This document shows positions 5,258-42,122 of a DNA stretch of 43,313 nt, in pieces; positions within the stretch are counted from its first letter, which is position 1, and each line of letters begins with the position of its first letter. The notes under the pieces are model-generated. The model had not been told where the DNA came from. It saw only the letters and a list, made by a program, of their open reading frames with translations, and did no database searches. A program made the position numbers and the translations under genes. Source of the stretch: Acidimicrobiales bacterium (GTDB lineage: Bacteria; Actinomycetota; Acidimicrobiia; Acidimicrobiales; Poriferisodalaceae); NCBI GenBank assembly GCA_004214275.1, contig SGYJ01000001.1, forward strand, positions 1 to 43,313. The letters are read 5' to 3'.

Positions 5258-6664
5258 TTAGCTCTTTGGCTGGAAACGTTCAGCAACTTGGCGATGTCTA
5301 GTGAGCATCTCGTCGATCTGTGGGTTAGTCAGCACTCCACCATCCACAATCTGTTCTCCATGGACAAACACGTGGGTCGCTGAAAAGGGGCCGCACCGCA
5401 GCCATCCTTCTATCGGGTCGTCAAGAACACCAGCGATTTGAGGCCCCTCTAGTCTCCATACAGCTACATCACCTACCGAACCAACTGACAATTCACCTAT
5501 TTCACCAGTTCGGCCAAGACACGCAGCCCCACCCCGAGTCGCTATTTCCAAGGCCATTCTCGCGTTCATCTGATCAGCCCCAGACACAAGCTTCCCTTGA
5601 AGCATCGCGAGCCGAGCTTCCTGCCATAACGAAGCTGAATCGGCAGACGAGGAGCCGTCACATCCCAAACCTACGGGGCACCCCGCGTCTCTCATCGCGA
5701 CAACTGGGGAAATGCCCGAAGAAAGGATCATGTTGGAACTTGGACAATGAGCGATACCGACGCCAGCTGCACCAAGACGAATAATTTCATGTTCGTTAGG
5801 GCGAACAACGTGCGCTCCCCAACTTCGATCAGTGAGCCATCCCACGTCTTCATACAATTCGACTGGGCGCCTCCCGAATTGGGCTATTGAAAATTCGTCA
5901 TCTTCAGAGTTTTCAGCCAGATGAGTGTGGAGTCTGACGTCAAGACGTTCCGCCAACTCTGCTGTTCGTAGCATTAAATCAGGGGTGACCGTAAACGGCG
6001 AACAGGGAGCAAGCGCTATCTGGAGCATCGATCCCACTGCAGGGTCATGCCAACGATTCACATGTCGTTCACTTTCGGCAAGAATGTCATCTTCGGTCCG
6101 AACAGCATCATCTGGAGGGAGACCTCCATCCTTGACCGACAAACTCATAGACCCGTAGGTCGGGTGAAACCTCATCGACAGCTCAACCGCTGCTTGAATT
6201 TCAGCTGCTAAGAGATCACCAGCTCTCGCCGGGTGAAGATAATGATGATCGGTCGTGGTGGTGCATCCGGACATTGCTAATTCCGCCAGTCCGACCCAGG
6301 CAGCCAGATATACCGCTTCTTCATCGATTGCTGCCGTCCACAACGGGTACAGCGACTCCAACCACCCGAATAGCGGCGCTGATGTCATCGGTCGGTAGGC
6401 CCGGGTCATGTTTTGGAATAAATGGTGATGAGTGTTGATTAACCCCGGAGTCACCAAACAGCCACTCGCGTTGACGCGGCGCTGAGCAGCGGGTGTCTGC
6501 TCAGTGCCCCCGCCGAGCGCAACAACAAGGCCGTTGTCGACTGCTACCCAACCGCCTGCTAGCTCGCGACGTTTCTCGTCCATAGTCGCAACCAGCCAAG
6601 CGTCCTCTATAAGGAGGTCAACGGGTTCAACCATCGAGGACAGTCTGACATTGATGTCAGACAT
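5258..6664 (-). CDS. 8-oxoguanine deaminase-like amidohydrolase (AtzB/TrzA/guanine deaminase group)
   Basis: 468 aa; PGLINTHHHLFQNMTRA (HxH), TTTTDHHYL, APCSPF, HTHLAE, HCPSSNM and GCDGSSS motifs match the 8-oxoguanine deaminase subgroup. The start could instead be the Met at 6634. Confidence 0.8.
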   Translation of the reverse strand: MSDINVRLSSMVEPVDLLIEDAWLVATMDEKRRELAGGWVAVDNGLVVALGGGTEQTPAAQRRVNASGCLVTPGLINTHHHLFQNMTRAYRPMTSAPLFGWLESLYPLWTAAIDEEAVYLAAWVGLAELAMSGCTTTTDHHYLHPARAGDLLAAEIQAAVELSMRFHPTYGSMSLSVKDGGLPPDDAVRTEDDILAESERHVNRWHDPAVGSMLQIALAPCSPFTVTPDLMLRTAELAERLDVRLHTHLAENSEDDEFSIAQFGRRPVELYEDVGWLTDRSWGAHVVRPNEHEIIRLGAAGVGIAHCPSSNMILSSGISPVVAMRDAGCPVGLGCDGSSSADSASLWQEARLAMLQGKLVSGADQMNARMALEIATRGGAACLGRTGEIGELSVGSVGDVAVWRLEGPQIAGVLDDPIEGWLRCGPFSATHVFVHGEQIVDGGVLTNPQIDEMLTRHRQVAERFQPKS

Positions 6665-6694
6665 CTGTGTTGACTAATTGGAGACTCATACCTC

Positions 6695-6700
6695 TATCTT
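6695..6700 (+). promoter_or_regulatory. Putative -10 box TATCTT of a leaderless transcript (possible -35 TTGACT at 6670-6675)
   Basis: TANNNT 6 nt upstream of ATG 6707, in a 42-nt divergent intergenic gap. Confidence 0.55.
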
Positions 6701-6706
6701 GGAAGA

Positions 6707-8206
6707 ATGCGCCGTCCACTGGCAGTTTTCGATGATTTCAATCCAGAAGGCAAGACGTCTTTTGCCAACGCGGTCACGCGTTTTCGCGAACGAAACATCG
6801 TTCTACCGCGATTTAGTGAGTTGAGAGACCCTACGACCTTCAAACCGGACCTTCTCGATGCTCTGGCCCATGTCGACCCTGATGATGCTGATCCGATCAA
6901 TCTTTTCCGAGTTCACTGGTTCAACAGTCCAACTCAACCAACACCAGTTGCCATCCCCGATCACATTGAACTACCACCAGAGGTCACCGGAACTGACGCT
7001 CGCATAGTGGTAGCGCTTGGGAATCGATTCCCGATGATCGCAGCCCACAAGGTACTCGCAGCGTATTCCTGTCTTGTCGCCCGCTTGGTTACAGGCCGCT
7101 TTGACCCAACTATCAACCGAGCTGTTTGGCCCTCCACTGGTAACTACGCCCGAGGTGGTGTTGCTATCTCAAAGATAATGGGCTGCCGTGGGGTCGCCGT
7201 TCTACCTGAGGGTATGAGCCGGGAACGATTTGAATGGTTAGATCGGTGGATCGAACACCCAGAAGACGTCATCCGCACACCCGGCACTGAAGCCAACGTC
7301 AAAGAAATTTACGATGAATGTGGTCGACTGGAGGCTGATGAATCAAATGTAATTCTCAATCAATTCAGCGAATTCTCGAACCATCTGGGGCACTACGCGG
7401 TGACAGGACCGGCTCTTGAGTCCATCTTTTTGGAAGTGACGTCTAAGCAACCTGCTCAACTCGCTGCTTTCGTTTCAGCTTCCGGGTCAGCCGGAACTTT
7501 GGGAGCTGGCGACTATTTGAAGGACACCCACGACACCCGGATTGTGGCTGTCGAAGCTCTTGAAGTGCCGACAATGCTTTATAACGGATTCGGTGACCAC
7601 AACATTCAGGGGATAGGCGATAAACACGTCCCCCTCATCCATAACGTCACTAACACTGATCTCATTGTTGGCATCTCGGACAAGGCAACAGATCACCTGG
7701 ACGTCGCATTTAACACGCCATCCGGCCTTCGCTCGTTGGAACGCCAAGGCGTCGATCCGGAGCTCGGATCGCTGTTAACAAATTTGGGGTATTCATCCAT
7801 ATGCAACATTTTGGCTGCAATCAAAGCAGCGAAGCACTGGGGACTCGGTCGCGAGGATGTCATTGTCACAGTCGCTACAGATGGGTCTGAACTGTATAAC
7901 TCCGAACGAGAAAAGGTTATGCGTCGGGATTTTCCAGAAGGATTTGACGATACCGAAGCCGACACTGTGCTCGGAACTCATTTGAACGACATCAGTACCG
8001 AACACATCCTTGATATGGACGCAGCAAACCGAGACCGTGTCTTCAACCTCGGCTATTTCACTTGGGTCGAACAGCAAGGAATTTCAATCGACGATTTCGA
8101 ACGCAGAAGAAGCCAAGATTGGTGGAACGAGTTACGACCCCTCATTGAGAAGTGGGACAATCGCATTAGCGAATTCAATGAGGCAACCGGCGCAAAGCAT
8201 CGTTAG
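6707..8206 (+). CDS. PLP-dependent enzyme, fold type II (cysteine synthase/Trp synthase beta-like), function unknown
   Basis: 499 aa; PLP-Lys motif AAHKVLAAY, PSTGNYARGG substrate loop, Gly-rich SGSAGTLGAG, HNIQGIG. Confidence 0.8.
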   Translation: MRRPLAVFDDFNPEGKTSFANAVTRFRERNIVLPRFSELRDPTTFKPDLLDALAHVDPDDADPINLFRVHWFNSPTQPTPVAIPDHIELPPEVTGTDARIVVALGNRFPMIAAHKVLAAYSCLVARLVTGRFDPTINRAVWPSTGNYARGGVAISKIMGCRGVAVLPEGMSRERFEWLDRWIEHPEDVIRTPGTEANVKEIYDECGRLEADESNVILNQFSEFSNHLGHYAVTGPALESIFLEVTSKQPAQLAAFVSASGSAGTLGAGDYLKDTHDTRIVAVEALEVPTMLYNGFGDHNIQGIGDKHVPLIHNVTNTDLIVGISDKATDHLDVAFNTPSGLRSLERQGVDPELGSLLTNLGYSSICNILAAIKAAKHWGLGREDVIVTVATDGSELYNSEREKVMRRDFPEGFDDTEADTVLGTHLNDISTEHILDMDAANRDRVFNLGYFTWVEQQGISIDDFERRRSQDWWNELRPLIEKWDNRISEFNEATGAKHR

Positions 8207-8210
8207 TGAC

Positions 8211-9314
8211 GTGAAAGAGACAAACCCCTTTATCCTCTACCGGGATCGCCTCGACTCCTACGATCACGCAGTTGCAGCCGGCTGGAGTGATCAGCAGTTT
8301 ATGGATCTGGTAGCTAGGTTGGATGCGGGGATACAGGTAGTTGATGGAGCCGGATTTTCTGTAACTCCCGTCATTAACGGCGGCCCGCTAGCAGCTGCGC
8401 TTGGCCTTGATATTGATCTGAAGATCAAGGTGGAAATCAATTCGGTTGGAGGGTCTCATAAGGCCAGGCACCTTTTTGGTGTTGCCCTTCATTCGGCGGT
8501 CGAAAACGCAACCAAAGATCCTCCGACGGGGTCTTTGGCAATTGCCAGTTGCGGCAATGCCGCTATAGCCGCAGCAATCGTAGCAAAGGCAATTAACCAA
8601 CCGATTGACGTGTTCGTCCCTGTTTGGGCTGAACGATCTGCACTTGACTTGTTGCAAGAATTGGGCGCGCAAATCCAAGTATGCACGCCAGCAACTAACG
8701 AAAAAGGGGACCCCTGTTACGCCCGCTTTCAACAAGCGCTCGCTAATGGCAGCCGCCCATTTGGCGTTCAAGGAACCGACACTCCTGCAGCTTTCGACGG
8801 CGGTCGAACTTTAGGGTGGGAGTTACACGACCAGGTCCCAAATCTAGACACCGTGTTCGTCCAAGTGGGAGGCGGTGCATTAGGGACAGCAACAGCAATG
8901 GCGTTGCCTGGTGTGCCGATCTATCCAGTTCAGGTTTCTGGATGCGCGCCTCTTAAACGAGCTTGGGACCTTCTGGCACCAGATTTTGATATGGCGGAAG
9001 CCGCTGATAACCCCGAAAATTTTATGTGGCCTTGGGACGAACCATCCAGCGCTGCTTCGGGTCTTCTCGATGACATTACCTACGACTGGCTGCCGTTGTT
9101 AGAAGCAACTTTGGTGGGTGGAGGAGAACCCGTAGTGGTACCTGAGGCAACTCTTATTGAAACCCATCGAATTGCCACTAGCGTTACAGGTTTAAATGTT
9201 TCTCCTACCGGGGTAGCGGGGCTAGCTGGTTTGGTAGAAGCCCCTCCAAAGACTGGCGAGGTCGTAGCGGTTTTATTTACAGGGGTCGACCGCCAAAACG
9301 AGGTAGCGGCATGA
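8211..9314 (+). CDS. PLP-dependent enzyme, fold type II (threonine synthase-like)
   Basis: GGSHKARH Lys motif, ASCGNAA, VQVGGGALG, terminal VLFTG. The track start at 8010 overlaps the upstream gene by about 200 nt; in-frame GTG 8211 (4 nt after the upstream stop) or ATG 8178 is more plausible. Confidence 0.75.
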   Translation: MKETNPFILYRDRLDSYDHAVAAGWSDQQFMDLVARLDAGIQVVDGAGFSVTPVINGGPLAAALGLDIDLKIKVEINSVGGSHKARHLFGVALHSAVENATKDPPTGSLAIASCGNAAIAAAIVAKAINQPIDVFVPVWAERSALDLLQELGAQIQVCTPATNEKGDPCYARFQQALANGSRPFGVQGTDTPAAFDGGRTLGWELHDQVPNLDTVFVQVGGGALGTATAMALPGVPIYPVQVSGCAPLKRAWDLLAPDFDMAEAADNPENFMWPWDEPSSAASGLLDDITYDWLPLLEATLVGGGEPVVVPEATLIETHRIATSVTGLNVSPTGVAGLAGLVEAPPKTGEVVAVLFTGVDRQNEVAA

Positions 9315-10144
9315 CAAATCTTCAAGAATTCCAAGTCTCTGGACATGCCGGCGAACTCCATGCACGACTCTGGCAGCCTTCTTCGACACCAAGAGCTCTC
9401 GTATTCATCCTTCACGGCTACGCCGAACATGGAGGCAGATACGCCCACGTTGCCGAAGCACTAGCTGCCGCTGACCTTGCCGTACTCGCTTCAGACCACG
9501 TTGGTCACGGCCTTTCCGGCGGAGAACGCGCACTGATCACCGATTTTGGTCTTGTGGTAAACGACTTAAATGCTGTGGTTTCGGAGGCCGTTAATCGACT
9601 CGATCCCGACATACCTCTCCTCTTGGCGGGACATTCAATGGGTGGGCTGCTTGCTGCTCGATTCGTCCAACGTTGGCCAGACCGAGCTATCGGTGCGGCT
9701 TTCTTCGGCGCGGTTATAGGTGACTGGAAGTGGGCACGCGAAGTGCTCGAATTACCAGAGCTACCTCCTGAAGACTCCGATCCAATGGGGATGTCACGGG
9801 ACATCGATGTTTGTCGGGATTATGACGCCGACCCGTTGGTTTACCGCGGCTTGTACAAACGACCTTTGCTCGAGGCAGAAGTCATCGCTCTGGACGACTT
9901 CCGTGACGAGATCAACAGGATCGAAATCCCGGTGGGGTTCTTTCATGGCACGGCGGATCCATTTGTACCCTACGAAGATTCTTTACAAGCCATTCACGAC
10001 ATGCCCAGCTCAGCAAAAACAGTGCATCTTTACGAAGGAGCAAAGCACGAGCTACTAAACGAGATCAACAAAGAGGAAGTTTTAGCCGATCTTCACAACT
10101 GGATAGATGGCACTCTCATTAACTCTTCGGAAGTACCCCAATGA
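9311..10144 (+). CDS. Alpha/beta hydrolase, lysophospholipase/monoacylglycerol lipase-like
   Basis: 277 aa; HGYAEH oxyanion motif, GHSMGG nucleophile elbow, HGTAD acid, KHEL catalytic His. ATGA overlaps with both neighbours. Confidence 0.85.
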   Translation: MTNLQEFQVSGHAGELHARLWQPSSTPRALVFILHGYAEHGGRYAHVAEALAAADLAVLASDHVGHGLSGGERALITDFGLVVNDLNAVVSEAVNRLDPDIPLLLAGHSMGGLLAARFVQRWPDRAIGAAFFGAVIGDWKWAREVLELPELPPEDSDPMGMSRDIDVCRDYDADPLVYRGLYKRPLLEAEVIALDDFRDEINRIEIPVGFFHGTADPFVPYEDSLQAIHDMPSSAKTVHLYEGAKHELLNEINKEEVLADLHNWIDGTLINSSEVPQ

Positions 10145-11598
10145 GTTCGGAGGTGGGACGTCTACATGAGTCGCAACAGCTAGGGACTCACATTGCGGAG
10201 ATCCTTCGTCCTTCAACTTGGTCTGAAGCAGTCGAATTGTACGACGCTTCACCAAATGCCGTGCCGGTAGCCGGAGCTACAGACCTCCTCCTGGATCTCT
10301 CACGCACCCCTGACACCCAAGGTTCTGGAGCAATTCTCCTAGACCTTTGGGGCTTACCGGATTGTTCACAAATCACCATCAGTGACAACGACGTTGTTAT
10401 CGGCTGCGGGGTGACACACAACCAGATCATTAGTTCACCGAATTTGGATTCTGCTCTCGACATACTTCGGATGGCATGTCTAGAGATTGGGTCCCCTCAA
10501 CTTCGGAATCGTGCGACTGTCGTTGGAAACATCGTCACAGCAAGTCCCGCTAATGACACTATTTCGGCGCTGGTGGCCCTCGACGCATCTGTTCTTATTG
10601 AATCGGTTGGCGGGAGACGTGAAGTCCCAATTAGCAATTTCTTTACCGGCTTTAGGCAAACAGTATTGGCGCAGTCAGAGTTAGTTCGCTCCATCAGAAT
10701 CCCTAAGTGGAACTCACAAACTGTTGGAACGTGGTTCAAGGTAGGCAACCGGACCGCCCAAGCAATATCTGTAGTTCACGCCGGGATTGTTCTTGAGTTT
10801 GACGAAGCAACATCACTCATTACAAAGGCTGACGTTGCGATCGGAAGCGTCAGCGAAACAATCGGTGTGTCAAAGCCATTGAGTGAATACCTAGTCGGTA
10901 AAAACCTTGACGCCGAAACGTCCGCTGCGGCTGCTCGTGTTGCTGCACGCGAGATCTCGCCCATAGATGACATACGCGCCACTGCTGCCTATCGAACCGC
11001 TGTCACCGAGGCCGCTATCCGTCGAGCCCTCACGAACCTTTCCGAATTCTCTACCCCCCGGTCTGAAGTTGTTCCGTTATTGGGTTGGGTTGCTAACCGT
11101 CCAACACCTCCTCAACCAAATCTGTCGTCGGCAACGGAAATCGCTTGCGTAGTCAACGGATCCAATGTCACCGCCCAAATTGCTGCCAATTCAACGCTTC
11201 TGGAATGGTTGCGAGCCAATGCTTCTACCGGAACTAAGGAAGGTTGTGCTGAAGGTGAATGTGGGGCTTGCACTGTCATGCTCAACGGCGCTGCTGTAAC
11301 AAGCTGCTTGGTTCCAACAGCGCAAGCCGACGGATCTTCTGTCGTAACGGTTGAAGGGCTTGCTAAGGGATCAGACTTGCACCCGGTCCAACAGGGGTTC
11401 CTAGACCAATTTGCTGTGCAGTGCGGATTCTGCACACCTGGGTTTCTTGTCGCAGCTGCCGCCCTATGCGATGAAAACAACTCGCCTTCAGCTGATGAGA
11501 TACGGGTGGGACTTTCGGGCAATCTCTGCCGCTGCACCGGGTATTACTCGATAATTGAAGCTCTAAGCGGCCTACCCACGCGTCAGGACTCGTCCTGA
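10141..11598 (+). CDS. Xanthine-dehydrogenase-family FAD-binding subunit fused to a C-terminal 2x[2Fe-2S] subunit
   Basis: N-terminal AGATDL, IGSPQLRNRATVVGN, ASPAND and PIDDIRAT FAD-subunit motifs. C-terminal GTKEGCAEGECGACTV...SC and QCGFCTPG...GNLCRCTGY iron-sulfur motifs. Confidence 0.9.
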   Translation: MSSEVGRLHESQQLGTHIAEILRPSTWSEAVELYDASPNAVPVAGATDLLLDLSRTPDTQGSGAILLDLWGLPDCSQITISDNDVVIGCGVTHNQIISSPNLDSALDILRMACLEIGSPQLRNRATVVGNIVTASPANDTISALVALDASVLIESVGGRREVPISNFFTGFRQTVLAQSELVRSIRIPKWNSQTVGTWFKVGNRTAQAISVVHAGIVLEFDEATSLITKADVAIGSVSETIGVSKPLSEYLVGKNLDAETSAAAARVAAREISPIDDIRATAAYRTAVTEAAIRRALTNLSEFSTPRSEVVPLLGWVANRPTPPQPNLSSATEIACVVNGSNVTAQIAANSTLLEWLRANASTGTKEGCAEGECGACTVMLNGAAVTSCLVPTAQADGSSVVTVEGLAKGSDLHPVQQGFLDQFAVQCGFCTPGFLVAAAALCDENNSPSADEIRVGLSGNLCRCTGYYSIIEALSGLPTRQDSS

Positions 11599-13835
11599 TG
11601 GCTGTCGGGAAAACGCCTCAACGTATTGATGCCGTCGACAAAGTCACCGGTGCGGCCACATACCCCGCGGATCGTGTCCCAGACAACGCTCTGCATGCTG
11701 TTGTCGTGTTCACAAATCAGCCTCATGCTCGTCTCGTCGATCTTGATTTCACAGATACTCTCACTGCGCCTGGCGTCGTAACGGTTGTGACTGCCGCCGA
11801 TGTTCCGGTCAACGAATATGGGCTGACATTATTTGATCAACCCGTTTTCATTGGGCTCGATGACACCGGACGCAGTTCAGTCCCATGTGATGTGAGCCGA
11901 TGGGAAGCAGACCATCTCGCAGTCGTTGTTGCTGAAAATCTGCTTCAGGCCCGTGAAGCTTCTGCTTTGATCAAAGCGCAATGGGAGATTCTGCCTCTCG
12001 TTTCCGATGTCAGCACTGCGCGGTCTGATGAAGTCCTTGTCCACCCCAACTCAACGAGTAACACCTACCACGAGCTTCGAATTCGGAAAGGAGATTCTGC
12101 TCAGGGGATGGAATTAGCCGACGTGGTCATAGAGGACACGTATGAACTCCCCCACCAAGAACACGCCTATTTGCAGGTGGAAGCCGCTACTGCATGGCTA
12201 GATGACAATAAGCGCGTCACTGTTGAAACAAGCGGGCAGTGGGTTCACGAAGATAGAGAACAAATAGCTCATGCGCTGGACGTCGATCCCGAAGAGGTTC
12301 GTGTTCGGTACGCCTCAATTGGCGGCGCTTTCGGCGGTAAGGAAGACATGAGTTTACAAATCGTTATGGCCGTGACGATTAAGAAACTTGACCAGCTTGG
12401 GGTTCGGCGTCCCGTGCATTGCAATTGGACTCGCGAAGAGTCCATCGTTGGTCACCACAAACGTCATCGAGCTACTGTTCACGCTCGGTTGGGCGCTACA
12501 GCGGATGGGATTATCACTGCTGTCGAAGCAGAAGTGCTCCTTGACGCAGGCGCATACAACTACACCTCCAACAAAGTACTTGGGAACCTCCATCTATCAG
12601 TCGCCGGCGCGTATGACGTACCGAATGCTCACATAGATAGCAAAGCCATTTACACCCACAGTGTCCCCGGTGGTGCTTTTCGAGGATTCGGCGGTCCACA
12701 GGGCGCTTTTGTCGCTGAATCGCAGATGAACAAGATGGCGCATGCATTGGGGTTGGACCCGTTAGAACTTCGCAGCCGCAATGCTCTTAATGATCTGTCT
12801 GACGGAATTACCCAGTCAGGTCTTCCAGAAGGTGTCGGCGTCAATCGAGTCATAGAAGCGTGTGCCGAAAAAGCGCCAGCTGATGCCGCATTACCGCGGA
12901 CACCACCATTTCGTTCTATTGCTTCACTCCCAGCTGAAATGGGCCAGTTAAAACAGGGTCGCGGATACGCCGTTGGCATGAAGAACGTCGGTTTTAGTTT
13001 CGGGTTCCCAGAAGCCTGCGAAGCAGACGTTGTTTTCCATGGCGACCCAGATACTGATCGCCCTACCCGGGTCGAACTGTTTCACAGCGCCGCCGAAGTT
13101 GGCCAAGGTGTGCACACCGCCCTGGTACAAATGGTGGCCGACGCGGCTGACATCAGCATCAGCAACATTGACGCCATTTACAGCGATACTGCTACCGGTG
13201 GGGATTCCGGGTCGGCGTCAGCCTCTCGCCTCACATTCATGGCCGGGAATTCGGTCTTGGGTGCTGTCGAAGAAGCAGAAAAGGCATGGGCTGACGGTGC
13301 CAGACCTGCTGTGGGACATTTCCGGTACAAACCGCCAGCAACCGAAGCACTCGATCCCGAAACAGGAGTCGGGCAACCCAACTTTTGTTATGGCTACATG
13401 GCACAGGCCGTGGATTTGACTGTCGACGTTGCCACTGGCCATATACGTGTCGACCGTGTTCTTTCAATTCATGACGTTGGCAAAGTCATCCACCCTCACA
13501 TGTTGAGGGGCCAAATTGAAGGTGCTATCGCGCAGGCTCATGGATACACCCTGAGCGAACAGCTAGTGGTTGAGGAAGGAAGGATCCGAAACCCTCGTCT
13601 TTCCCAATACCTGATCCCAGGGATTGGGGACGTACCCGTCAAGGTGGAATGCCTGATTTTGGAAGCAGCTGACCCCCTTGGCCCTTGGGGTGCGCGCGGT
13701 GTTTCTGAAATGCCATACATCACCTACGCCCCGGCAGTTACAGCAGCTCTTCATGATGCAACCGGTGTTTGGATGAACACTTTTCCTCTAACACCATCGG
13801 TAGTTCTCGAACACCTAAGCGCCGCGAGTGGTTAG
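11598..13835 (+). CDS. Xanthine-dehydrogenase-family molybdopterin-binding (large) subunit
   Basis: 745 aa; KVTGAATY, EHAYLQ, GGAFGGKE, GAFRGFG, EVGQG, SASASR, GQIEG, GARGVSE (catalytic Glu). TGATG overlap with the upstream gene. Confidence 0.92.
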   Translation: MAVGKTPQRIDAVDKVTGAATYPADRVPDNALHAVVVFTNQPHARLVDLDFTDTLTAPGVVTVVTAADVPVNEYGLTLFDQPVFIGLDDTGRSSVPCDVSRWEADHLAVVVAENLLQAREASALIKAQWEILPLVSDVSTARSDEVLVHPNSTSNTYHELRIRKGDSAQGMELADVVIEDTYELPHQEHAYLQVEAATAWLDDNKRVTVETSGQWVHEDREQIAHALDVDPEEVRVRYASIGGAFGGKEDMSLQIVMAVTIKKLDQLGVRRPVHCNWTREESIVGHHKRHRATVHARLGATADGIITAVEAEVLLDAGAYNYTSNKVLGNLHLSVAGAYDVPNAHIDSKAIYTHSVPGGAFRGFGGPQGAFVAESQMNKMAHALGLDPLELRSRNALNDLSDGITQSGLPEGVGVNRVIEACAEKAPADAALPRTPPFRSIASLPAEMGQLKQGRGYAVGMKNVGFSFGFPEACEADVVFHGDPDTDRPTRVELFHSAAEVGQGVHTALVQMVADAADISISNIDAIYSDTATGGDSGSASASRLTFMAGNSVLGAVEEAEKAWADGARPAVGHFRYKPPATEALDPETGVGQPNFCYGYMAQAVDLTVDVATGHIRVDRVLSIHDVGKVIHPHMLRGQIEGAIAQAHGYTLSEQLVVEEGRIRNPRLSQYLIPGIGDVPVKVECLILEAADPLGPWGARGVSEMPYITYAPAVTAALHDATGVWMNTFPLTPSVVLEHLSAASG

Positions 13836-18362: not shown

Positions 18363-19612
18363 CAGTCCACCTCGGTCAAAGCAAGCATCGTGTCGCTGAG
18401 CAGCTGAGCTCCAGCTATTAAATCTTTTTCATCAGTATGTTCTGCTGGGTTATGGCTAATGCCGTCCAAGCTGGGGACAAAGATCATGCCGGTTGGGCAA
18501 ATGCGAGCCATCATTTGGGCATCGTGACCCGCGCCTGATGGCATGCGTTTTGTCGACAGGCCGGTCTGTTCTGCTAGTTGTTCAATTTGTTCAACGACCC
18601 TGCCGTCAAATTCAACTGGTTCGAAGCGAGCAAGTGATCGACTTTCAACCGTTACATCCTCGTCTTCGGCGATAGCTGCAACTCCAAGTCGAAGTTGTTC
18701 TTCGGCAAGTTGAAGCGAAGCTTCGTCCGTGTTGCGCAGGTCAACGGTCATGGTTGCGCTAGCCGGGACGACGTTCACTAGGTTTGGGTGGAGGTGCAAA
18801 GACCCGACGGTCGCTACTTGGCTACCTCCTATCTCGGACGCTATCGACCGCGCGGCCACCACAACTTCAGCTGCCGCTCGCATGGGATCTCGGCGGAGCG
18901 ACATGGGTGTTGTGCCTGCATGGTTCGATTGCCCGATCAAAGTCAGTTCTGTCCATGAAATGCCTTGCACACCTTCGACAATTCCGATCTGGATACTTTC
19001 CTTATCTAGGACCGGTCCCTGTTCGATATGCAGCTCTACAAAAGCGTGGGGCGTTACGCCAGGACAAGGGGATGACCCTCGATAACCAATGCGGTCCAAC
19101 TCTTCTCCAACTACCGTGCCGTCGGAACCCTCGACTTGTAGCACGGCCTCGACACTCATTCCTCCCACATATGCGAGGCTTCCCATCATGTCTGGTGCAT
19201 ATCGGGATCCTTCTTCATTGGAGAAAAACGCGACAGCCAATGGCCGCGCAAGTTCGATGTCGGCTGCGAGTGTTGCTTCGATAACTTCTAACCCCGCCAG
19301 GACCCCGAGGTTACCGTCGTAGCGGCCTCCGGTTCCTACCGTATCGATATGGGAACCAGCCATTACTGCGCCCGACGCGCCGTCAGGGTTCGTGGAAGCG
19401 ACGACGTTTCCCACGACATCGATTGTTACCGTCAAGCCCAGATCTCGCATCCATGTGACAACCAGATCTCGCCCTTCACGATCAGCATCAGTGAACGCCA
19501 GTCGCGAACATCCTTTAGTGCCTTCGATTTCTCCGATTCGGGCAAGCTCGGCTATTCGTTCAAGAAGCCGTTCCCCGTTGATTGACACCGATGGGCTATT
19601 TGGCAAAGCCAT
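18359..19612 (-). CDS. M20-family Zn-dependent hydrolase (N-carbamoyl-L-amino acid hydrolase / beta-ureidopropionase / allantoate amidohydrolase group)
   Basis: 417 aa; GSHIDTV, GRYDGNLG, NEEGSRY, ELHIEQGP, NHAGTTPM, SGAGHDAQ, SHNPAE. Confidence 0.9.
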   Translation of the reverse strand: MALPNSPSVSINGERLLERIAELARIGEIEGTKGCSRLAFTDADREGRDLVVTWMRDLGLTVTIDVVGNVVASTNPDGASGAVMAGSHIDTVGTGGRYDGNLGVLAGLEVIEATLAADIELARPLAVAFFSNEEGSRYAPDMMGSLAYVGGMSVEAVLQVEGSDGTVVGEELDRIGYRGSSPCPGVTPHAFVELHIEQGPVLDKESIQIGIVEGVQGISWTELTLIGQSNHAGTTPMSLRRDPMRAAAEVVVAARSIASEIGGSQVATVGSLHLHPNLVNVVPASATMTVDLRNTDEASLQLAEEQLRLGVAAIAEDEDVTVESRSLARFEPVEFDGRVVEQIEQLAEQTGLSTKRMPSGAGHDAQMMARICPTGMIFVPSLDGISHNPAEHTDEKDLIAGAQLLSDTMLALTEVDW

Positions 19613-19710
19613 ATCTTCATTGAACCCGATTCACCGACAAAATAGCTAGTGATTCCCGTTGTCCTCATATTTCGTTAGTGTTCACTGACTACTACTTCAT
19701 CGGAGATCTT

Positions 19711-20715
19711 GTGACTCGACCGGCTCTGTACCTCCAAGATGCTCACGCAATTACTGAGGGAATTGAATTTGCTAGGTACGCGGAGGACAGCGGATTTGAT
19801 GCAGTTTGGCAGGCTGATTCACGCTTGGTTCGCGAAGCTTCTGTACCCATGGCTGCATTTGCGGCGACCACTGAGCGAATCAAGATCGGTTCAGGGGTAG
19901 TAGATGTATGGACCCGCAATCCTGCTCGGCTTGCTTCAATGTTCGCGACACTCGATGATCTGGCGCCCGGGAGAATTTTGTGTGGGTTAGGTGCCTGGTG
20001 GGATCCTTTAGCGACAAAGGTCGGAGTGTCACGAGATCGGCCTTTGACAGTTATGCGCGAAGTAGTTGCTGCAGTCCGTGCTCTTCTCGCTAATGAAACC
20101 GTGACCGTTGACGGGTATTTCGTGAAACTCGATGGTGTCGAGTTGGACTATGTCTACCAGGATCGCAAACCCAAAGAGGTTCCGATATATATCGGAGCTA
20201 CTGGGATGAAAATGATGGAGTTAACTGGTGAAATCGCTGACGGAGTTGTCCTTAACTACCTAGTTTCGCCTGATTACAACGCTCGCGCTATGGATGCTTT
20301 AGAACGAGGCGCGGAAAAGAGTGGGCGCTCAGTCGATGATCTTGATCGTCCTCAACTGGTTGTGTGTTCAGTCCACGAAGACCGTTCCACTGCACTGGAT
20401 ATGGCCAGAAATATGGTCACTCAATATCTCGGGCAACAACCTCACATAATGGAAGCTTCGGGTGTGCCGAAGTCCTTGCTTGAAGCGGTGGGCGAAGTGC
20501 TGACCTGGCCGGCTACACACGAACAAGTAGAAGCTGCATCGAAGCTGATACCGGATGAAATTGTCCAGATGTTGACAGCTTCAGGCACAGCAGCAGAAGC
20601 ACGTGAAGCGGTAGCCGGTTACATGTCGAATGGCTGCACTTCACCCGTGCTGTATCCATTAGGCGACGTTTACGCCACTATTGATGCTTTCGCTGACTGG
20701 GACGGCTCGAGTTAA
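19711..20715 (+). CDS. LLM-class oxidoreductase, Mer-like (probably F420-dependent)
   Basis: [27 protein letters not shown] and [20 protein letters not shown] resemble methylene-H4MPT reductase-type LLM proteins. GTG 19711 is preceded by GGAG (track start is 19678). Confidence 0.8.
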
Positions 20716-20848
20716 ACCAAATTATGGAGGCTGCCAAAGCCCTTTAATTTCTTCTTTGATCATTCTCTGTAAGGTCTCATCGCTCGCTCAGAATGTGACA
20801 GAATGCGGAGGTTCGATGTCGAAAAAACATAGAGATAGGGCGGTAGAA

Positions 20849-21928
20849 ATGCGGAGGAAGATTGCAGCACTGCTAGCGGTCTGTATCGGGCTGGGCTTTG
20901 TACTCACTAGCTGCGGTGGAGACGATGGTGCCGATACAAAGGCTGCGTTCGTATACGTGGGCCCGGTCGGCGACGCCGGTTGGACTTATGCACACGACGA
21001 AGGTCGGCAGTATGCGGAAAGTGAAACTGGAGTTGAAACGGCTTACGTGGAAGCAGTTCCTGAGGGAACAGCTGATTTTGCTAACTACGTTCGAGATTTC
21101 ATTGACCAGGGGTACAACGTAATTATTGGTACCTCGTTTGGGTATATGGACGACATGCTCGCGTTGGCAGATGAATACCCTGACGTTGTTTTTGAACATG
21201 TCTCTGGGTACAAGATGAATGACAGCAACTTCGGCAACACCTTTGGCCGAATGTATGAGCCTCGTTATCTTTCCGGAATGGTTGCTGGTTCAGCTACAAG
21301 TTCAGGTTTGATCGGCTACGTCGCTGCTTTCCCAATTCCTGAAGTTATAAGAGGAATTAACGCTTTCACCCTTGGCGTCCAAGCCATAAACCCAAGCGCT
21401 CAAGTAGAAGTAATCTGGACCAGCACGTGGTTTGATCCAGTCGTCGAAGGTGACTCTGCTCAAGCGTTGCTTGATAAAGGTGCCGACGTGATCGCTATGC
21501 ACCAAGATTCAACGGCAGCGGGCGAGAAGGCTGAAGCAGCCGGCGCACGGTGGGTTTCCTATAACTCCGATATGAGTGCGTTTGCCCCGAACGCTTTCCT
21601 AACTGCCCCTGTCTGGAACTGGGGACCTCGGTACGTTGAAATTATCGAGGATGCGAAAGCGGGCAATTACGCGCCAAGCTCCTATTGGGGGTCAATGGCT
21701 GACGGAATCGTTGATCTTGCACCAATAGCAAGTGACGTCGACCAATCCGTAGTTGATCAGGTAATGGAAGCAAAGGCTGCCATTATCGCTGGTGATATGC
21801 ATCCGTTCACCGGTCCAATCATGGATCAGGACGGCAACCAAGTCCTCGGTGCTGGTGAAGTTATGGATGACGGAGCAATGCTCGGGATGATGTTCTTCGT
21901 TGAAGGCGTCATTGGATCCACTGGCTGA
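20849..21928 (+). CDS. BMP-family ABC transporter substrate-binding lipoprotein (purine/nucleoside type)
   Basis: Signal peptide with lipobox MRRKIAALLAVCIGLGFVLTSC; YVGPVGDAGWTYAHDEG, GTSFGYMD, AFPIPEVIRGINAF, WFDP. Alternative start at ATG 20816. Confidence 0.9.
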   Translation: MRRKIAALLAVCIGLGFVLTSCGGDDGADTKAAFVYVGPVGDAGWTYAHDEGRQYAESETGVETAYVEAVPEGTADFANYVRDFIDQGYNVIIGTSFGYMDDMLALADEYPDVVFEHVSGYKMNDSNFGNTFGRMYEPRYLSGMVAGSATSSGLIGYVAAFPIPEVIRGINAFTLGVQAINPSAQVEVIWTSTWFDPVVEGDSAQALLDKGADVIAMHQDSTAAGEKAEAAGARWVSYNSDMSAFAPNAFLTAPVWNWGPRYVEIIEDAKAGNYAPSSYWGSMADGIVDLAPIASDVDQSVVDQVMEAKAAIIAGDMHPFTGPIMDQDGNQVLGAGEVMDDGAMLGMMFFVEGVIGSTG

Positions 21929-21950
21929 GTTAGTTAGCTGTTAACAGCAT

Positions 21951-21991
21951 TTAGCGGCGCCGGCGAGGACTACCCACGTCGGCGCCGCTAA
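21951..21991 (+). other. GC-rich intercistronic stem-loop
   Basis: TTAGCGGCGCCG (21951-21962) is the exact reverse complement of CGGCGCCGCTAA (21980-21991), extendable by 3 more pairs including one G-U. It lies between the binding-protein and ATPase genes. Confidence 0.75.
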
Positions 21992-22021
21992 CGCGTTTAA
22001 GCAAAGCAGGTTCTCCTCTCG

Positions 22022-23563
22022 ATGACGCAACCCTCATCTCCTACCGATAGCGGCCAACTCTCCATCGAATTGACCGATATATGGAAAACATTTCCAGGGG
22101 TTGTCGCGAATGCTGGAGTGGAACTCGCCGTGCGACGTCGGTCAATTCATGCTCTTCTAGGAGAAAACGGGGCCGGCAAATCAACCCTGATGAACATCCT
22201 TGCGGGCGTCTACCGCCCCGACAGCGGTGAGGTGAAAATCCATGGTCTTCCCCACCAATTTCGAAGTCCGGCTGATGCCTTATCTGCTGGAGTTGGCATG
22301 GTCCATCAAGAATTCCGGCTAATTCCTTCTTTTTCAGTAGCCGAAAATATTGTCCTCGGTTCAGCCCCATCCATCATCAATAATCGCCAGGTCGAGAACG
22401 ATGTTGAAGACATGGCACGCAAGTACGGATTAAAAGTTGATCCGGCCCAGCCGCTGTGGCAGCTATCTATGGGTGAGCGCCAAAAGGTGGAGATATTGAA
22501 AGTGTTGTGGCGTGATGCGCAGGTGCTGATCCTCGACGAACCAACCACTGTTTTGACACCCAGCGAAGTAGACGAATTAGGTGAGATCCTGCGACGTATG
22601 GCTAATGATGGGCGCTCCATTATTTTTATTAGCCACAAATTGCATGAAGTCTCCGGGATCTGTGATGAAGCCACTGTCTTAAGGCAAGGGGAAACCGTTG
22701 CGGGATCCTTAGACATGGCAACAACGGACCAAAACGAACTAGCACGTCTCATGGTTGGATCGTCTCCTGTCATTGCAGCCCGGCCTGCGGCAGCAACTCC
22801 AGGGAAACCTTTGCTAGAGCTGCAAAATCTGAGCGCAATGGGTGACCGCGGTGTCGACGCGTTTTCCGACGTCAACTTCCGAATCCATTCAGGGGAAATA
22901 GTTGGTATCGCTGGCGTGGCTGGCAATGGGCAACGAGAACTAGCCGACGTCATTGCTGGTTTACGGCCTTCAAACAACGGCACATTAATCATGGATGGCA
23001 CTGACATAACTGCGGTCAGCGCTCACCGTCGCTTTCAGTCTGGCCTGGCATACATACCTGAGGATCGCCTGGGCGTAGGGTTAGCACCACGCCTCTCAAT
23101 AACCGATAATGCGATACTTCGCGTTTACCGGCAACAACGGCGAGGCCCATTTATCATCGCCGAAAAAGCCCTGTCCTACTGCGCCGACCTCGTTAAACGT
23201 TTCGGAGTTCGATCAGGTGATCCCGATGGGCCAATCGCTGCCCTGTCGGGAGGAAATCTTCAACGCCTTTTGGTCGGTAGAGAATTAGATGGGAAACCTT
23301 CGGTGGTCATCGCTTCCCAACCCACACGAGGTCTTGACGTGCAAGGAGTGAAAGCGATCCAAGATCTGCTACTTGATCAGCGAAATTCAGGTGCGGCGGT
23401 AATGATGATCTCCGAAGACCTTGACGAACTCCTCACGCTAACTGACCGGCTTCTCGTGATGGAAGGGGGCGTCATCCGTGGCGAGTTCGATCCTCGAACT
23501 GTGTCTCGACACGAAGTTGGGATGGCGATGCTCTCTGATGCGCAAGCCTCTTCGCACTCATGA
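22022..23563 (+). CDS. ABC transporter ATP-binding protein (CUT2/nucleoside type, two ABC domains)
   Basis: GENGAGKS Walker A, LSMGERQ, ILDEPT; degenerate second Walker A GVAGNGQ; LSGGNLQ, QPTRGLD. Confidence 0.93.
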   Translation: MTQPSSPTDSGQLSIELTDIWKTFPGVVANAGVELAVRRRSIHALLGENGAGKSTLMNILAGVYRPDSGEVKIHGLPHQFRSPADALSAGVGMVHQEFRLIPSFSVAENIVLGSAPSIINNRQVENDVEDMARKYGLKVDPAQPLWQLSMGERQKVEILKVLWRDAQVLILDEPTTVLTPSEVDELGEILRRMANDGRSIIFISHKLHEVSGICDEATVLRQGETVAGSLDMATTDQNELARLMVGSSPVIAARPAAATPGKPLLELQNLSAMGDRGVDAFSDVNFRIHSGEIVGIAGVAGNGQRELADVIAGLRPSNNGTLIMDGTDITAVSAHRRFQSGLAYIPEDRLGVGLAPRLSITDNAILRVYRQQRRGPFIIAEKALSYCADLVKRFGVRSGDPDGPIAALSGGNLQRLLVGRELDGKPSVVIASQPTRGLDVQGVKAIQDLLLDQRNSGAAVMMISEDLDELLTLTDRLLVMEGGVIRGEFDPRTVSRHEVGMAMLSDAQASSHS

Positions 23564-24645
23564 AACGTCCTCGTTTAAGCCTCCGGGAGCAACCCCTACC
23601 GGGAGGGCAGCCTCTCGCGTTCGGCATAGGTTTAGCAATAGCGCTCTTTGTCGGCACACTGCTTCTTTTAGGTGCTGGACATGACCCTTTGAGAATCTAT
23701 TCAAGAATGTTTGACGCCTCACTCGGCGGCCCTGATGCTTGGGCCATAACACTGAACCGCGCTGTTCCTCTTGGGCTTGCCGGGTTAGCAGTAGCTATTG
23801 CGGGCTCTATGGGACTTTGGAACATCGGCGCTGAAGGCCAAATAATGGCAGGAGCAATCGGGGCAGCTTGGGTGGCCCGTATAGGCGGTGATTGGCCCGG
23901 GCTTGTACTCATCACAATGATGCTTGTCGCAGCGATCGGCGGAGGAGGGCTCCTAGCAATTGGGCCCGCTGTAGCTCGAGCCAAACTCGGTGTTAACGAA
24001 ATCATCACAACTTTGATGCTTAATGAGGTCGCAATTCGGCTGGTTCAATGGCTTATCCATGGTCCTTGGAAAGACCCCGACTCATTTAACTTTCCGTTGG
24101 CTCCTATGTTGCCTGACCAGGCCCGCTTACCAACACTTTTTAGCCGGGCACACTTCGGATTGCTCATAGCAGCAGCCGTGATCGTCATTGCCTCTGTCGC
24201 CGTCCGTTACACAGCGTGGGGATATGAGCTCAGAATCGCTGGGTCTTCTGAATCCACCGCACGGTACAGCGGTATCTCATTGCCCAAGAAAGTCCTCACC
24301 GTGCTCGTGTTGAGTGGTGCTGTAGCGGGATTAGCCGGCGGCGTTGAACTAACAGGCACCGCCGATCGTCTAACAGAGACGATTTCGAATGGTTTCGGTT
24401 TCGCGGGCATCATCGTTGCTGCCTTGGCGCTTATGCGCCCGTCGGGCGTAGCCGCGGTCGCCTTACTCTTTGGCGCCGTCCAAATAGGTGGTCAAAGTAT
24501 TCAAACCCTTGGGGTTTCTTCCTCGGTTTCCACAATTCTCCAGGCGTTTGTTCTATTTGGTGCAATCGGAGCTGGCGTCTTTAGCCGGTATCGCGTGACC
24601 TTAGACAGCGGGCCAGCCTCAACCCCAGAAGAAGCCATGTCATGA
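23560..24645 (+). CDS. ABC transporter permease (nucleoside/sugar type)
   Basis: Multiple transmembrane segments; WNIGAEGQ, VNEIITTLMLN, GFGFAGIIVA. Confidence 0.9.
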   Translation: MKRPRLSLREQPLPGGQPLAFGIGLAIALFVGTLLLLGAGHDPLRIYSRMFDASLGGPDAWAITLNRAVPLGLAGLAVAIAGSMGLWNIGAEGQIMAGAIGAAWVARIGGDWPGLVLITMMLVAAIGGGGLLAIGPAVARAKLGVNEIITTLMLNEVAIRLVQWLIHGPWKDPDSFNFPLAPMLPDQARLPTLFSRAHFGLLIAAAVIVIASVAVRYTAWGYELRIAGSSESTARYSGISLPKKVLTVLVLSGAVAGLAGGVELTGTADRLTETISNGFGFAGIIVAALALMRPSGVAAVALLFGAVQIGGQSIQTLGVSSSVSTILQAFVLFGAIGAGVFSRYRVTLDSGPASTPEEAMS

Positions 24646-25574
24646 ACGAAGCATCATTAATTGGTCTGCTTTTCGCGACGGTCTCTTTTGGGGCCCTTCT
24701 CTACTTGGCGGCGCTAGGCGAACTATTAGCCGAGAAAGCGGGCGTCTTGAATCTTGGCGTCGAAGGCATGATGGCCATCGGCGCTGTCACTGCTTTTATC
24801 GCAGGAGTTGAATTCCAAAACCCTTGGTTGGCCTTAATAATTGCGATGTTCAGCGGCGCTTTGTTGGCTTCCGTTCACGGCTTTTTCACCGTTGGGCTAG
24901 GCGCAGAACAAGTTGTTTCAGGCCTATCACTCACTATTTTAGGATTGGGCCTTGCTGCTTATCTGGGCAAGAGCTATGTCGGACTACCGCCGGGTGCCGA
25001 ATTGGTACCCGTTGAATGGGGAAGTTTGTCTGATTTGCCATGGGTTGGCCCAATTTTGTTTAACCAGGCTCCAATCGTTTATTTAGCACTCCTGTCGGGG
25101 ATAGCAGTGAGTTTCATCCTTTCAAGCACTCGTCTCGGTCTGGCTTTACGAGCAGCAGGTGAGTCTGCCTCTTCTACTGATTCGGCAGGCCATTCTGTTC
25201 TTGGTCTTCGACTCGCTGCTGTAGCTGCTGGAGGGGCGCTAGCAGGGGCATCGGGAGCTTATTTGACATTAAGCATCACCCCCCAGTGGGCCGAAGGCGT
25301 AACTGCTGGTCGTGGGTGGATAGCCGTTGCTCTTGTTATTTTTGGCGCTTGGCGTCCTAGCAGAGTTGGTTGGGGAGCCTTGCTTTTTGGTGGGACGTTG
25401 GCATTAAAGACCCGCCTACAGACCTTTGGTGTCGATTTTTCGCCAATAATTTTATCGATGCTTCCCTACATCCTCACACTGCTGATTCTGCTCATCATTT
25501 CAGTTCGAGCGCGCAAACGGCCATCACCAGCTCCAGCCGCGCTTGGATTGGCGTATCGACGAGAAGAGCGTTAA
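24642..25574 (+). CDS. ABC transporter permease (nucleoside/sugar type)
   Basis: Multiple transmembrane segments; EKAGVLNLGVEGMM, RAAGES, AGRGWIAVALVIFG, MLPY, PAALG. Confidence 0.9.
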   Translation: MNEASLIGLLFATVSFGALLYLAALGELLAEKAGVLNLGVEGMMAIGAVTAFIAGVEFQNPWLALIIAMFSGALLASVHGFFTVGLGAEQVVSGLSLTILGLGLAAYLGKSYVGLPPGAELVPVEWGSLSDLPWVGPILFNQAPIVYLALLSGIAVSFILSSTRLGLALRAAGESASSTDSAGHSVLGLRLAAVAAGGALAGASGAYLTLSITPQWAEGVTAGRGWIAVALVIFGAWRPSRVGWGALLFGGTLALKTRLQTFGVDFSPIILSMLPYILTLLILLIISVRARKRPSPAPAALGLAYRREER

Positions 25575-29945: not shown

Positions 29946-30019
29946 TGGAGCTGATCGGAATCGAACCGACGACCCCCTGCTTGCAAAGCAGGTGCTCTAG
30001 CCAACTGAGCTACAGCCCC
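29946..30019 (-). tRNA. tRNA-Ala(TGC)
   Basis: GGGGCTGTAGCTCAGTTGGCTAGAGCACCTGCTTTGCAAGCAGGGGGTCGTCGGTTCGATTCCGATCAGCTCCA; 74 nt cloverleaf, G3-U70 identity pair, CCA not encoded. Confidence 0.97.
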
Positions 30020-31049: not shown

Positions 31050-31070
31050 GTCAGTCAACTGGAGTTCTAG

Positions 31071-35225: not shown

Positions 35226-35299
<74 letters not shown>

Positions 35300-35353
35300 G
35301 AACAAGTGTCAGATAGTAGCGGCGCTACTGACACTCCACCAACGTGAATGTGT

Positions 35354-36127: not shown

Positions 36128-36171
36128 GCGTCGAAGTGTACGGGAGGCCAAGCCGTAGCTGGGCGCGGTGT

Positions 36172-40607
<4,436 letters not shown>

Positions 40608-40713
40608 TTAACCCCTTTTCGTGAGCCAAATACTACCAGTAGGAGGGGGGCCAAAGAGGTAGGGTTAAAACCGTTATACGGCTTCTCAAGGCTTCTGAAG
40701 CAAAATACTTGAC

Positions 40714-42106: not shown

Positions 42107-42122
42107 TATCTTGTCGGTTTAC

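Follow-up and report, generated by a model that had tools for sequence, protein, structure and literature searches.

A candidate F420-linked, hydrolytic version of the reductive 2,8-dioxopurine pathway in a marine Acidimicrobiales gene cluster

Reductive degradation of urate through 2,8-dioxopurine is described as restricted to obligate or facultative anaerobes, and the order and stereochemistry of its ureido steps are treated as open (Percudani, PMC12990295). A gene cluster of an Acidimicrobiales bacterium (Poriferisodalaceae; assembly GCA_004214275.1, contig SGYJ01000001.1) raises the question of whether the same chemistry may be carried out by an oxygen-respiring organism with a different set of enzymes. 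The cluster occupies positions 5258-25574 of the window, that is, of the whole 43,313-nt stretch of DNA analysed, which is contig C1 of a 1.69-Mb genome that is 78% complete. The closest named GTDB records of its luciferase-like monooxygenase (LLM) gene are marine Acidimicrobiales metagenome-assembled genomes (MAGs; 90-99% identical). A haem-copper oxidase subunit I is encoded in the genome (41% identical to E. coli CyoB), and the host is therefore likely to respire oxygen.

The canonical route of Clostridium sporogenes and E. coli employs XdhAC or XdhD-YgfM, YgfK, SsnA, HyuA, YgeW and YqeA as well as YgeY and YgeX, and its need for selenium has been defined (Liu et al., bioRxiv 10.1101/2025.04.24.650524). 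The cluster resembles it in an FAD-less Fe-S and molybdenum (Mo) enzyme similar to 2,8-dioxopurine dehydrogenase (DOPDH) adjoining an ssnA-like gene, two predicted ureido-cleaving enzymes, candidate fold-II pyridoxal phosphate (PLP) enzymes for the terminal step and the lack of a uricase. It differs in having no orthologs of YgfK, YgeW, YqeA, YgeY or YgeX and no linked HyuA, and in its marine, probably oxygen-respiring host, in which yqeB and yqeC were not found and no ATP from carbamoyl phosphate is predicted. What the cluster probably encodes is a version of the reductive 2,8-dioxopurine pathway that is F420-linked and fully hydrolytic. Gene identities, linkage, co-occurrence and swaps are observed, and every reaction is deduced from them. 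There is a good chance that it works like this pathway, yet its gene content places it outside the canonical clusters.

The genes form four units arranged as two divergent pairs, the units being delimited by strand and overlapping stop and start codons and not by transcripts. Unit 1 (minus strand) is the deaminase gene; unit 2 (plus strand, 6707-13835) runs from PALP1 to the Mo subunit of a second xanthine dehydrogenase (XDH)-family enzyme; unit 3 (minus strand) reads from the M20 gene at 19612 to the ssnA-like gene at 13832; unit 4 (plus strand, 19678-25574) is the LLM gene followed by a BMP-type ATP-binding cassette (ABC) importer.

5258..6664, minus strand: 8-oxoguanine/guanine deaminase-family amidohydrolase (NF006055, 566 bits, cut-off 532)
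6707..8206, plus strand: PALP1, a 499-residue fold-II PLP enzyme of an unstudied family (PF00291)
8178..9314, plus strand: PALP2, a fold-II PLP enzyme (PF00291), threonine deaminase/serine racemase-like by its PDB matches
9311..10144, plus strand: alpha/beta hydrolase (S33; PF12146), accessory
10141..11598, plus strand: FAD and 2Fe-2S subunit of the second XDH-family enzyme (PF00941, PF01799)
11598..13835, plus strand: Mo subunit of the second XDH-family enzyme, PucD-like (TIGR03196, 473 of 784 bits)
13832..14884, minus strand: short SsnA-like amidohydrolase of 350 residues (NF005540, 255 bits, cut-off 444)
14875..17448, minus strand: fused Fe-S and Mo enzyme of the TIGR03311/DOPDH type (TIGR03311, 811 bits, cut-off 830)
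17445..18362, minus strand: D-carbamoylase (N-carbamoyl-D-amino-acid hydrolase) of the nitrilase family, matching PDB 6LCG at 409 bits, E 1e-121
18359..19612, minus strand: M20 hydantoinase/carbamoylase-family amidase (TIGR01879, 415 bits, cut-off 204)
19678..20715, plus strand: Mer-like LLM oxidoreductase (PF00296), probable start near 19711
20681..25574, plus strand: BMP/PnrA-like binding protein, ATPase and two permeases (PF02608, PF00005, PF02653)

All the enzymes that the initial annotation had listed in four units are present where it placed them, and the alpha/beta hydrolase is an extra member absent from its list; in some loci of the same genus (L003, L022, L026, L027) this gene is missing between PALP2 and the FAD subunit. 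The window contains, as had been claimed, no ygfK, ygeW, hyuA, ygeX, uricase or allantoinase gene, and the Mo-enzyme gene does adjoin ssnA, though both products score below their family cut-offs (811 of 830 and 255 of 444 bits). A scan of the cluster with Rfam returned no element.

The grouping of these genes is not due to chance: of the 80 best-matching LLM loci in GTDB, 70 have SsnA, the Mo enzyme or both on the DNA that was fetched, and several of the other ten are short contigs. In Acidimicrobiia from lake, soil and sponge, a single operon again holds M20, D-carbamoylase, Mo enzyme, ssnA and LLM in this order. The comparison set consists of 41 genomes of the same genus, family or order, which as kin are not independent and most of which are incomplete MAGs. 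The Mo enzyme and SsnA mark an identical set of 27 genomes (the pathway genomes below), leaving 14 negative ones. An LLM ortholog (68% or more identity) is present in 23 of the 27 and none of the 14, D-carbamoylase in 24 and none, PALP1 in 26 and one (a 57%-complete MAG), a hydantoinase in 22 and two, selD in 22 and seven, and yqeC in seven and none. The co-occurrence of these families anticipated for Acidimicrobiia is thus observed, and it holds for genes lying apart as well. SsnA-like matches numbered 56 in a sample of 401 Actinomycetota, 15 of them above cut-off (five of the 56 come from genomes marked unpublished, which are used in this tally only). The 103 fetched ssnA loci considered below overlap to some extent between sets and leave out 30 short loci from the Actinomycetota sample.

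The reductive step assigned to YgfK is predicted to be carried out by LLM, as an F420H2-dependent reductase of 2,8-dioxopurine. Its nearest solved structures are those of F420-dependent Mer, and the host is predicted to make F420 on the basis of FbiC, above cut-off in all five genomes tested including that of the window, and of an NpdG-like gene (31%) in the window genome. The distribution of LLM is complementary to that of a half-length YgfK (YgfK-half, 603-616 residues), which matches only the N-terminal half of YgfK and scores below the TIGR03315 cut-off: 22 pathway genomes have LLM only, three YgfK-half only, one both, and one, with a contig break, neither. YgfK-half replaces LLM beside ssnA or in the operon in several Acidimicrobiia (L010:5721-7532; L175, L176, L179, L180), and four further genomes (98-100% complete) in which ssnA adjoins YgfK-half gave no LLM match at E<=1e-60, a threshold at which a control genome matched. 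Among the 103 ssnA loci, LLM is found in 93, YgfK-half in four and full-length YgfK in two, and both together in none. In the window genome tblastn with YgfK returned only a GltD-like partial match, and YgfK-half was not found in genomes G000 (that of the window) to G008.

The replacement of YgfK by LLM, put forward in the initial annotation, is backed by this distribution. The annotation could not confirm that the variant was undescribed, and this swap is already in print: an F420 'luciferase-family' reductase has been proposed, on bioinformatic grounds only, in SsnA clusters of Chloroflexota by Li et al. 2025 (PMC12507026), who also count Actinomycetota among SsnA carriers. As in that variant, SsnA lies within 15 genes of both an XDH-family enzyme and a PF00296 protein in the window, and there is no YgfK or UacX. 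The words carbamoylase and nitrilase are absent from their main text, and Acidimicrobiia, haloarchaea and the PLP pair go unmentioned in the parts available. The Atlas clusters closest to the window LLM come most often from Actinomycetota and Chloroflexota, and it is on this lead that the identity of its clade with the Chloroflexota clade of Li et al. rests. In the LLM tree the deep nodes are open, and haloarchaeal LLMs fall among the SsnA-linked ones without strong support.

Other LLM genes were noted as well. In G007 a paralog (48%; L118:6127-14473) lies with an ABC transporter, a nitrilase, an omega-aminotransferase and a dihydropyrimidinase, and may be an F420 enzyme that takes the place of dihydropyrimidine dehydrogenase in the reductive breakdown of pyrimidines. 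In the window itself (30147-32027), a distant second LLM stands beside a PLP enzyme resembling threonine dehydratase and hydroxyaspartate lyase (429 of 452 bits), just preceded by a tRNA gene at 29946-30019.

The two ureido-cleaving slots are occupied by YgeW and YgeY in E. coli and by UacY and YgeY in C. difficile, where UacX stands for YgfK and UacY, a D-aminoacylase, for YgeW; it has been argued that the YgeW/UacY slot cuts the 2-ureido group (Li et al. 2025, PMC12507026). The nitrilase-family protein of the window matches D-carbamoylases (EC 3.5.1.77; PDB 6LCG, 1FO6, 1ERZ) over its full length, and all 11 of its PDB matches belong to these enzymes. The catalytic Glu-Lys-Cys, the NDRRW stretch and the substrate arginines are conserved, which would assign it to EC 3.5.1.77. 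N-carbamoyl-D-amino-acid hydrolases, known mainly as industrial biocatalysts, act on alpha-N-carbamoyl-D-amino acids, and for this reason the window enzyme is predicted to cleave the 2-ureido group in the YgeW/UacY slot. Unlike those of the known enzymes, this gene is established in a purine operon, a setting that points to 2,3-diureidopropionate as its natural substrate.

The M20 enzyme, predicted to cleave the 3-ureido group in the YgeY slot, is of the beta-ureidopropionase/L-carbamoylase type (PDB matches include 8C46 and beta-alanine synthase). It lies outside the YgeY family (TIGR03526): it scores with TIGR01879, and E. coli YgeY gives no tblastn match to it. M20 is present in 53 and YgeY in seven of the 103 ssnA loci, never together. 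The three pathway genomes without D-carbamoylase also lack an M20 ortholog (one has a 40% paralog), and next to the Mo enzyme these same three have YgeY, which exceeds its cut-off in the single genome scanned, and a D-aminoacylase. Chained with the published YgeW and YgeY or UacY and YgeY sets, and with the pairing of D-aminoacylase and M20 in the haloarchaeal clusters described below, these natural swaps would give the YgeW/UacY slot to D-carbamoylase and the YgeY slot to M20, in agreement with both roles as first proposed. The cluster would share with the C. difficile variant a hydrolytic, D-specific removal of the 2-ureido group and an alternative reductase with its reductant, and differs in its nitrilase-fold D-carbamoylase, in M20 for YgeY and in LLM as reductase. 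A PRK07046-family transaminase gene lies divergent to the M20 gene in G030 (L017:5013-6449); the window genome has no ortholog.

The canonical genes were not found elsewhere in the genome either: tblastn of the 78%-complete assembly with E. coli and E. faecalis queries detected no ortholog of ygfK, ygeW, ygeX, ygeY, yqeC or carbamate kinase, which is consistent with the initial annotation, and near-complete members of the genus agree. TIGR03316 is present in none of five genomes tested and TIGR01747 in none of nine genomes of the window genus. An oxidative urate route was rejected, with uricase in none of the 41 genomes, OHCU (2-oxo-4-hydroxy-4-carboxy-5-ureidoimidazoline) decarboxylase in none of five and no allA, allD or allE in the window genome. 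Urease is absent from four of five genomes tested, including that of the window.

The reduction of urate to 2,8-dioxopurine is predicted for the TIGR03311-type Mo enzyme, which is 40% identical to the enzyme of the E. faecalis ygfK-hydA-dpaL-ygeY-ygeW cluster and only 24-26% identical to E. coli XdhD/XdhA. It keeps the equivalents of xanthine oxidoreductase Q767, E802, R880, F914 and E1261. Liu et al. (bioRxiv 10.1101/2025.04.24.650524) define DOPDH by 46% or more identity to C. sporogenes XdhAC together with F1009V and A1078T/S; the window enzyme has Thr at A1078, as in DOPDH, and Leu at F1009, where DOPDH has Val. The E. faecalis and Collinsella enzymes have Val and Thr/Ser at positions 1009 and 1078, supporting the residue mapping, and Glu606 of E. 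coli XdhD lies in a poorly aligned loop and is uninformative.

The initial annotation had taken this enzyme to be selenium-dependent, which now appears doubtful. Of the selenium-cofactor genes selD, yqeB and yqeC, the window genome has selD only (G000:C45:3028-3969); an in-frame TGA in this gene, which most relatives in the family share, probably encodes selenocysteine. The search for yqeC was negative in 20 of the 27 pathway genomes, including all nine of the window genus, and that for yqeB in four of five tested (G000, G001, G007, G030), and there is no selD above cut-off in G030 (100% complete) or G040 (98%), both of which carry the core operon. Five yqeC regions were inspected: in four, yqeBC border another module, of E. 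coli-XdhD-like type, and in G015, where this module is missing, they are some 12-20 kb away from the core genes. Because yqeB and yqeC were found in neither genome nor genus, the Mo enzyme is likely a sulfur form rather than a selenium-dependent one. The other maturation genes sought, an XdhC-like gene and MocA/MobA-family genes, are present in the window genome. A second module, found in four relatives (L103, L105, L106/L107 and L108), combines an LLM paralog (47-48%), a deaminase-like amidohydrolase, YgfM, an E. coli-XdhD-like Mo enzyme, a second SsnA-like protein and yqeB/yqeC.

Opening of the six-membered ring is predicted for the short SsnA (37.5% identical to E. coli SsnA over 296 residues). 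SsnA is the best-scoring family for this protein, which lacks parts of the small beta-domain and has intact metal and SsnA-type motifs. For the following step, a hydantoinase gene lies inside the cluster in several loci. The only one found in the window genome is a contig-end fragment on C53, 37% identical to E. coli HyuA and 31-35% identical to the cluster-linked hydantoinases (40% for one short fragment); it was rejected as an ortholog of the cluster-linked HyuA by identity and by its position outside their clade in the tree.

PALP1 and PALP2 are candidates for the YgeX slot. The Asp120 position of E. coli YgeX presumably provides the base for D-substrates; in PALP2 a Cys aligns with it in 25 of 25 homologs, and in PALP1 the column holds Thr. 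Asp120 and Lys77 have been named as potential catalytic residues of YgeX (PMC4000059). Both window proteins lack this Asp and have no match to TIGR01747 or TIGR03528, the families that define YgeX, diaminopropionate ammonia-lyase. The PLP lysine is kept in PALP2, whose reading frame is open from 8010 and whose probable start, near 8178, is where homolog alignments begin; in PALP1 it is Lys115, invariant in 25 aligned sequences. The best Foldseek matches of PALP1 are CysK and cystathionine beta-synthase (CBS) at a template modelling (TM) score of about 0.5, and structure models of both proteins find only general fold-II relatives at 15-27% identity. PALP1 occurs without a YgeX-like gene in 22 of the 27 pathway genomes, and in each of the five pathway-bearing genomes where PALP1 was not found, the cluster contains a YgeX-like gene. 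The proposal that PLP enzymes replace YgeX is favoured by these genomes, and strict exclusion between the two was rejected, since four of the 27 genomes and Poriferisodalis-type loci have both. PALP2 was not found in five YgeX-type genomes, by a search that had no positive control and shows little.

The remaining genes would supply the substrate. The deaminase (380 bits to PDB 7WW2) is predicted to feed the route by converting 8-oxoguanine to urate and guanine to xanthine. The second XDH-family enzyme, with its FAD and 2Fe-2S subunit as a possible electron module, is predicted to be a purine/xanthine hydroxylase feeding urate, a role that is unsure: its Mo subunit keeps the E802, F914 and E1261 equivalents and, in the alignment, has Asn at the R880 position. 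The BMP-type ABC system, whose binding protein probably starts near 20849, is predicted to import purine bases or nucleosides.

Similar sets occur in other lineages. Two of 15 plasmid records with a 54-57% identical LLM were inspected; another plasmid record, with LLM at 43%, shows an unrelated context. The plasmid clusters of Haloarcula marismortui (L128, NC_006395.1 250677-273881) and Haloterrigena turkmenica (L129/L187, NC_013744.1 179496-214639) both have two XdhA/D-type Mo enzymes, M20 (42%), a D-aminoacylase, LLM (53-55%), a ThrC-like PLP enzyme, a cyclic amidohydrolase and an SsnA-like protein, hence a candidate for every slot. BMP homologs (38% identical) are also found in a haloarchaeal cluster. 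That of H. turkmenica adds selD, yqeB, yqeC, adenine deaminase and two NCS2 permeases, and has npdG (F420H2:NADP reductase) next to its 53%-identical LLM. For haloarchaeal purine degradation, the available part of PMC8305020 mentions only an oxidative cluster. In other Actinomycetota families, LLM (59-71%) occurs with SsnA, the Mo enzyme, YgeY, HyuA-like proteins, carbamoyltransferases and carbamate kinase, being paired either with one carbamoyltransferase and YgeY or with two carbamoyltransferases and carbamate kinase. Among these, L165-L168 and L177 have aspartate carbamoyltransferase-like and ornithine carbamoyltransferase/YgeW-like enzymes in the LLM/SsnA cluster, several with carbamate kinase; clusters with two carbamoyltransferases could conserve ATP from both ureido groups.

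In the proposed pathway, purines would be imported by the ABC system and the deaminase and FAD-containing XDH would feed urate, which the TIGR03311-type Mo enzyme would reduce to 2,8-dioxopurine, a step that probably does not use the selenium cofactor of YqeBC. With F420H2, the Mer-like LLM would reduce the ring, the SsnA-like amidohydrolase would open the six-membered ring, and an unlinked, not securely identified hydantoinase would yield (R)-2,3-diureidopropionate. D-carbamoylase would then remove the 2-ureido group to give D-albizziin, M20 the 3-ureido group to give D-2,3-diaminopropionate, and the PLP pair, most likely PALP2, would eliminate ammonia to leave pyruvate. Imported purines would thus end as four ammonia, two CO2 and pyruvate, providing nitrogen and carbon but no substrate-level ATP, as no carbamoyltransferase or carbamate kinase was found. 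Of the rewired reductive route that the initial annotation had sketched, the core stands and three of the four slots (LLM, D-carbamoylase, M20) are backed by complementary distributions; selenium dependence, exclusivity of the PLP enzymes and the HyuA step are weaker.

Several observations weigh against this pathway. The relatives on which it relies are non-independent and mostly incomplete MAGs, both marker proteins, the Mo enzyme and SsnA, score under their family cut-offs, and the cluster falls short of the four-of-seven gene set of Liu et al. (bioRxiv 10.1101/2025.04.24.650524). The C. sporogenes DOPDH is active only anaerobically and requires SelD (same source), whereas the host has a haem-copper oxidase. 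With no linked HyuA ortholog the hydantoinase step is not securely filled, and five of the 27 pathway genomes, among them G008 (93%) and the three with YgeY (93-98%), gave no hydantoinase at E<=1e-60; in these three the D-aminoacylase might fill the ring-opening slot, which would weaken the chain of swaps. PALP1 and a YgeX-like gene coexist in four of the 27 genomes and in six Poriferisodalis-type loci. PALP1 homologs (52-54%) also stand alone on Rhizobium and Bosea plasmids (L130:13941-15440, L131:14070-15404), near amino-acid or TRAP (tripartite ATP-independent periplasmic) transporters and without purine genes. The gaps at the hydantoinase and PLP steps, together with the shortened SsnA and the CysK-like beta-replacement fold of PALP1, would also fit a route whose upper part (Mo enzyme, LLM, SsnA) is as proposed and whose lower part differs, its slots not corresponding one to one: the product of the short SsnA might need no HyuA, or a PLP enzyme might eliminate urea directly from albizziin, a compound that plant cysteine synthases make from urea. 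This is unlikely, given that ssnA loci never combine alternative enzymes of one ureido slot, that urease is missing from four of five genomes and that most pathway genomes do have a hydantoinase, in several loci inside the cluster.

It is somewhat less probable still that the main substrate of this reductive chemistry is not urate but some other N-heterocycle, such as a pyrimidine, a pterin or a purine that is methylated or oxidised. Relatives of 8-oxoguanine deaminase do accept isocytosine among other substrates (PMC6186785), hydantoinase and carbamoylase families serve pyrimidine reduction, the 48%-identical LLM paralog of G007 lies beside pyrimidine-type genes, and the second Mo enzyme lacks the R880 equivalent. 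Relatives, however, keep a separate pyrimidine-type cluster (nitrilase, dihydropyrimidinase, and aminotransferase or methylmalonate-semialdehyde dehydrogenase); the TIGR03311-type Mo enzyme keeps its purine-binding residues and is closest to enzymes of ygfK/ygeW clusters; LLM swaps with a YgfK fragment; and the H. turkmenica cluster adds adenine deaminase and NCS2 permeases. Very improbable is a loose island of N-heterocycle scavenging in which the Mo enzymes are oxidative and the other enzymes have unrelated jobs. Oxygen respiration of the host, the four separate units and the lack of linkage of PALP1 and PALP2 to the cluster in several relatives could be read in this way, but co-occurrence persists among unlinked genes, no oxidative urate route was found, and the slot pattern recurs in haloarchaea and other classes.

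Around the cluster and within unit 4, a few further features were seen. A GC-rich inverted repeat lies at about 21951-21991, between the binding-protein and ATPase genes, where mRNA-stabilising hairpins are commonly found. Four marine RNA-library assemblies contain near-identical sequence pieces (15-24 of 30 bins covered), which are not counted as evidence, since transcription cannot be read from contigs and the comparison had no silent control. An alkyl-sulfatase and an arylsulfatase gene (1173-5188) come after the deaminase gene on the same strand, separated from it by 70 bases, with no pathway link seen. At 35226-43229, a tRNA gene, DUF3566, gyrA, gyrB, recF and dnaN place the cluster near the usual block of replication-origin genes.

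The F420 reductase is in print for Chloroflexota, and no description of the Acidimicrobiia or haloarchaeal variant was found in open-licence PMC and bioRxiv, although subscription journals may hold one; as far as found, nothing in print covers the swaps of the lower route, the apparent lack of selenium dependence or the range into aerobes and archaea. The predicted F420 reductase has not been assayed in the papers found, and a homolog is carried by the cultured Haloarcula. If the YgeW/UacY slot is indeed filled by a D-specific alpha-ureido hydrolase, the pathway version through albizziin and the R configuration would be favoured, which is relevant to the debate in print on the ureido group that each enzyme removes. 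A Mo enzyme with no need of YqeBC would likewise bear on what sets selenium versus sulfur dependence. It is possible, though somewhat less likely than not, that the abundant Acidimicrobiia that respire oxygen in sea and fresh water harvest purine nitrogen mainly by a selenium-free, F420-driven reductive route, and that haloarchaea have an F420 version parallel to it. If so, D-carbamoylase would gain a natural substrate, PALP1/PALP2 would represent a new diaminopropionate-lyase family, and the YgeW slot would be settled as cutting the 2-ureido group of an (R)-configured intermediate. If the proposed pathway is correct, the reductive urate route would extend to uricase-less aerobes of ocean and lake water and to haloarchaea, and would represent an unrecognised sink for dissolved purine nitrogen.

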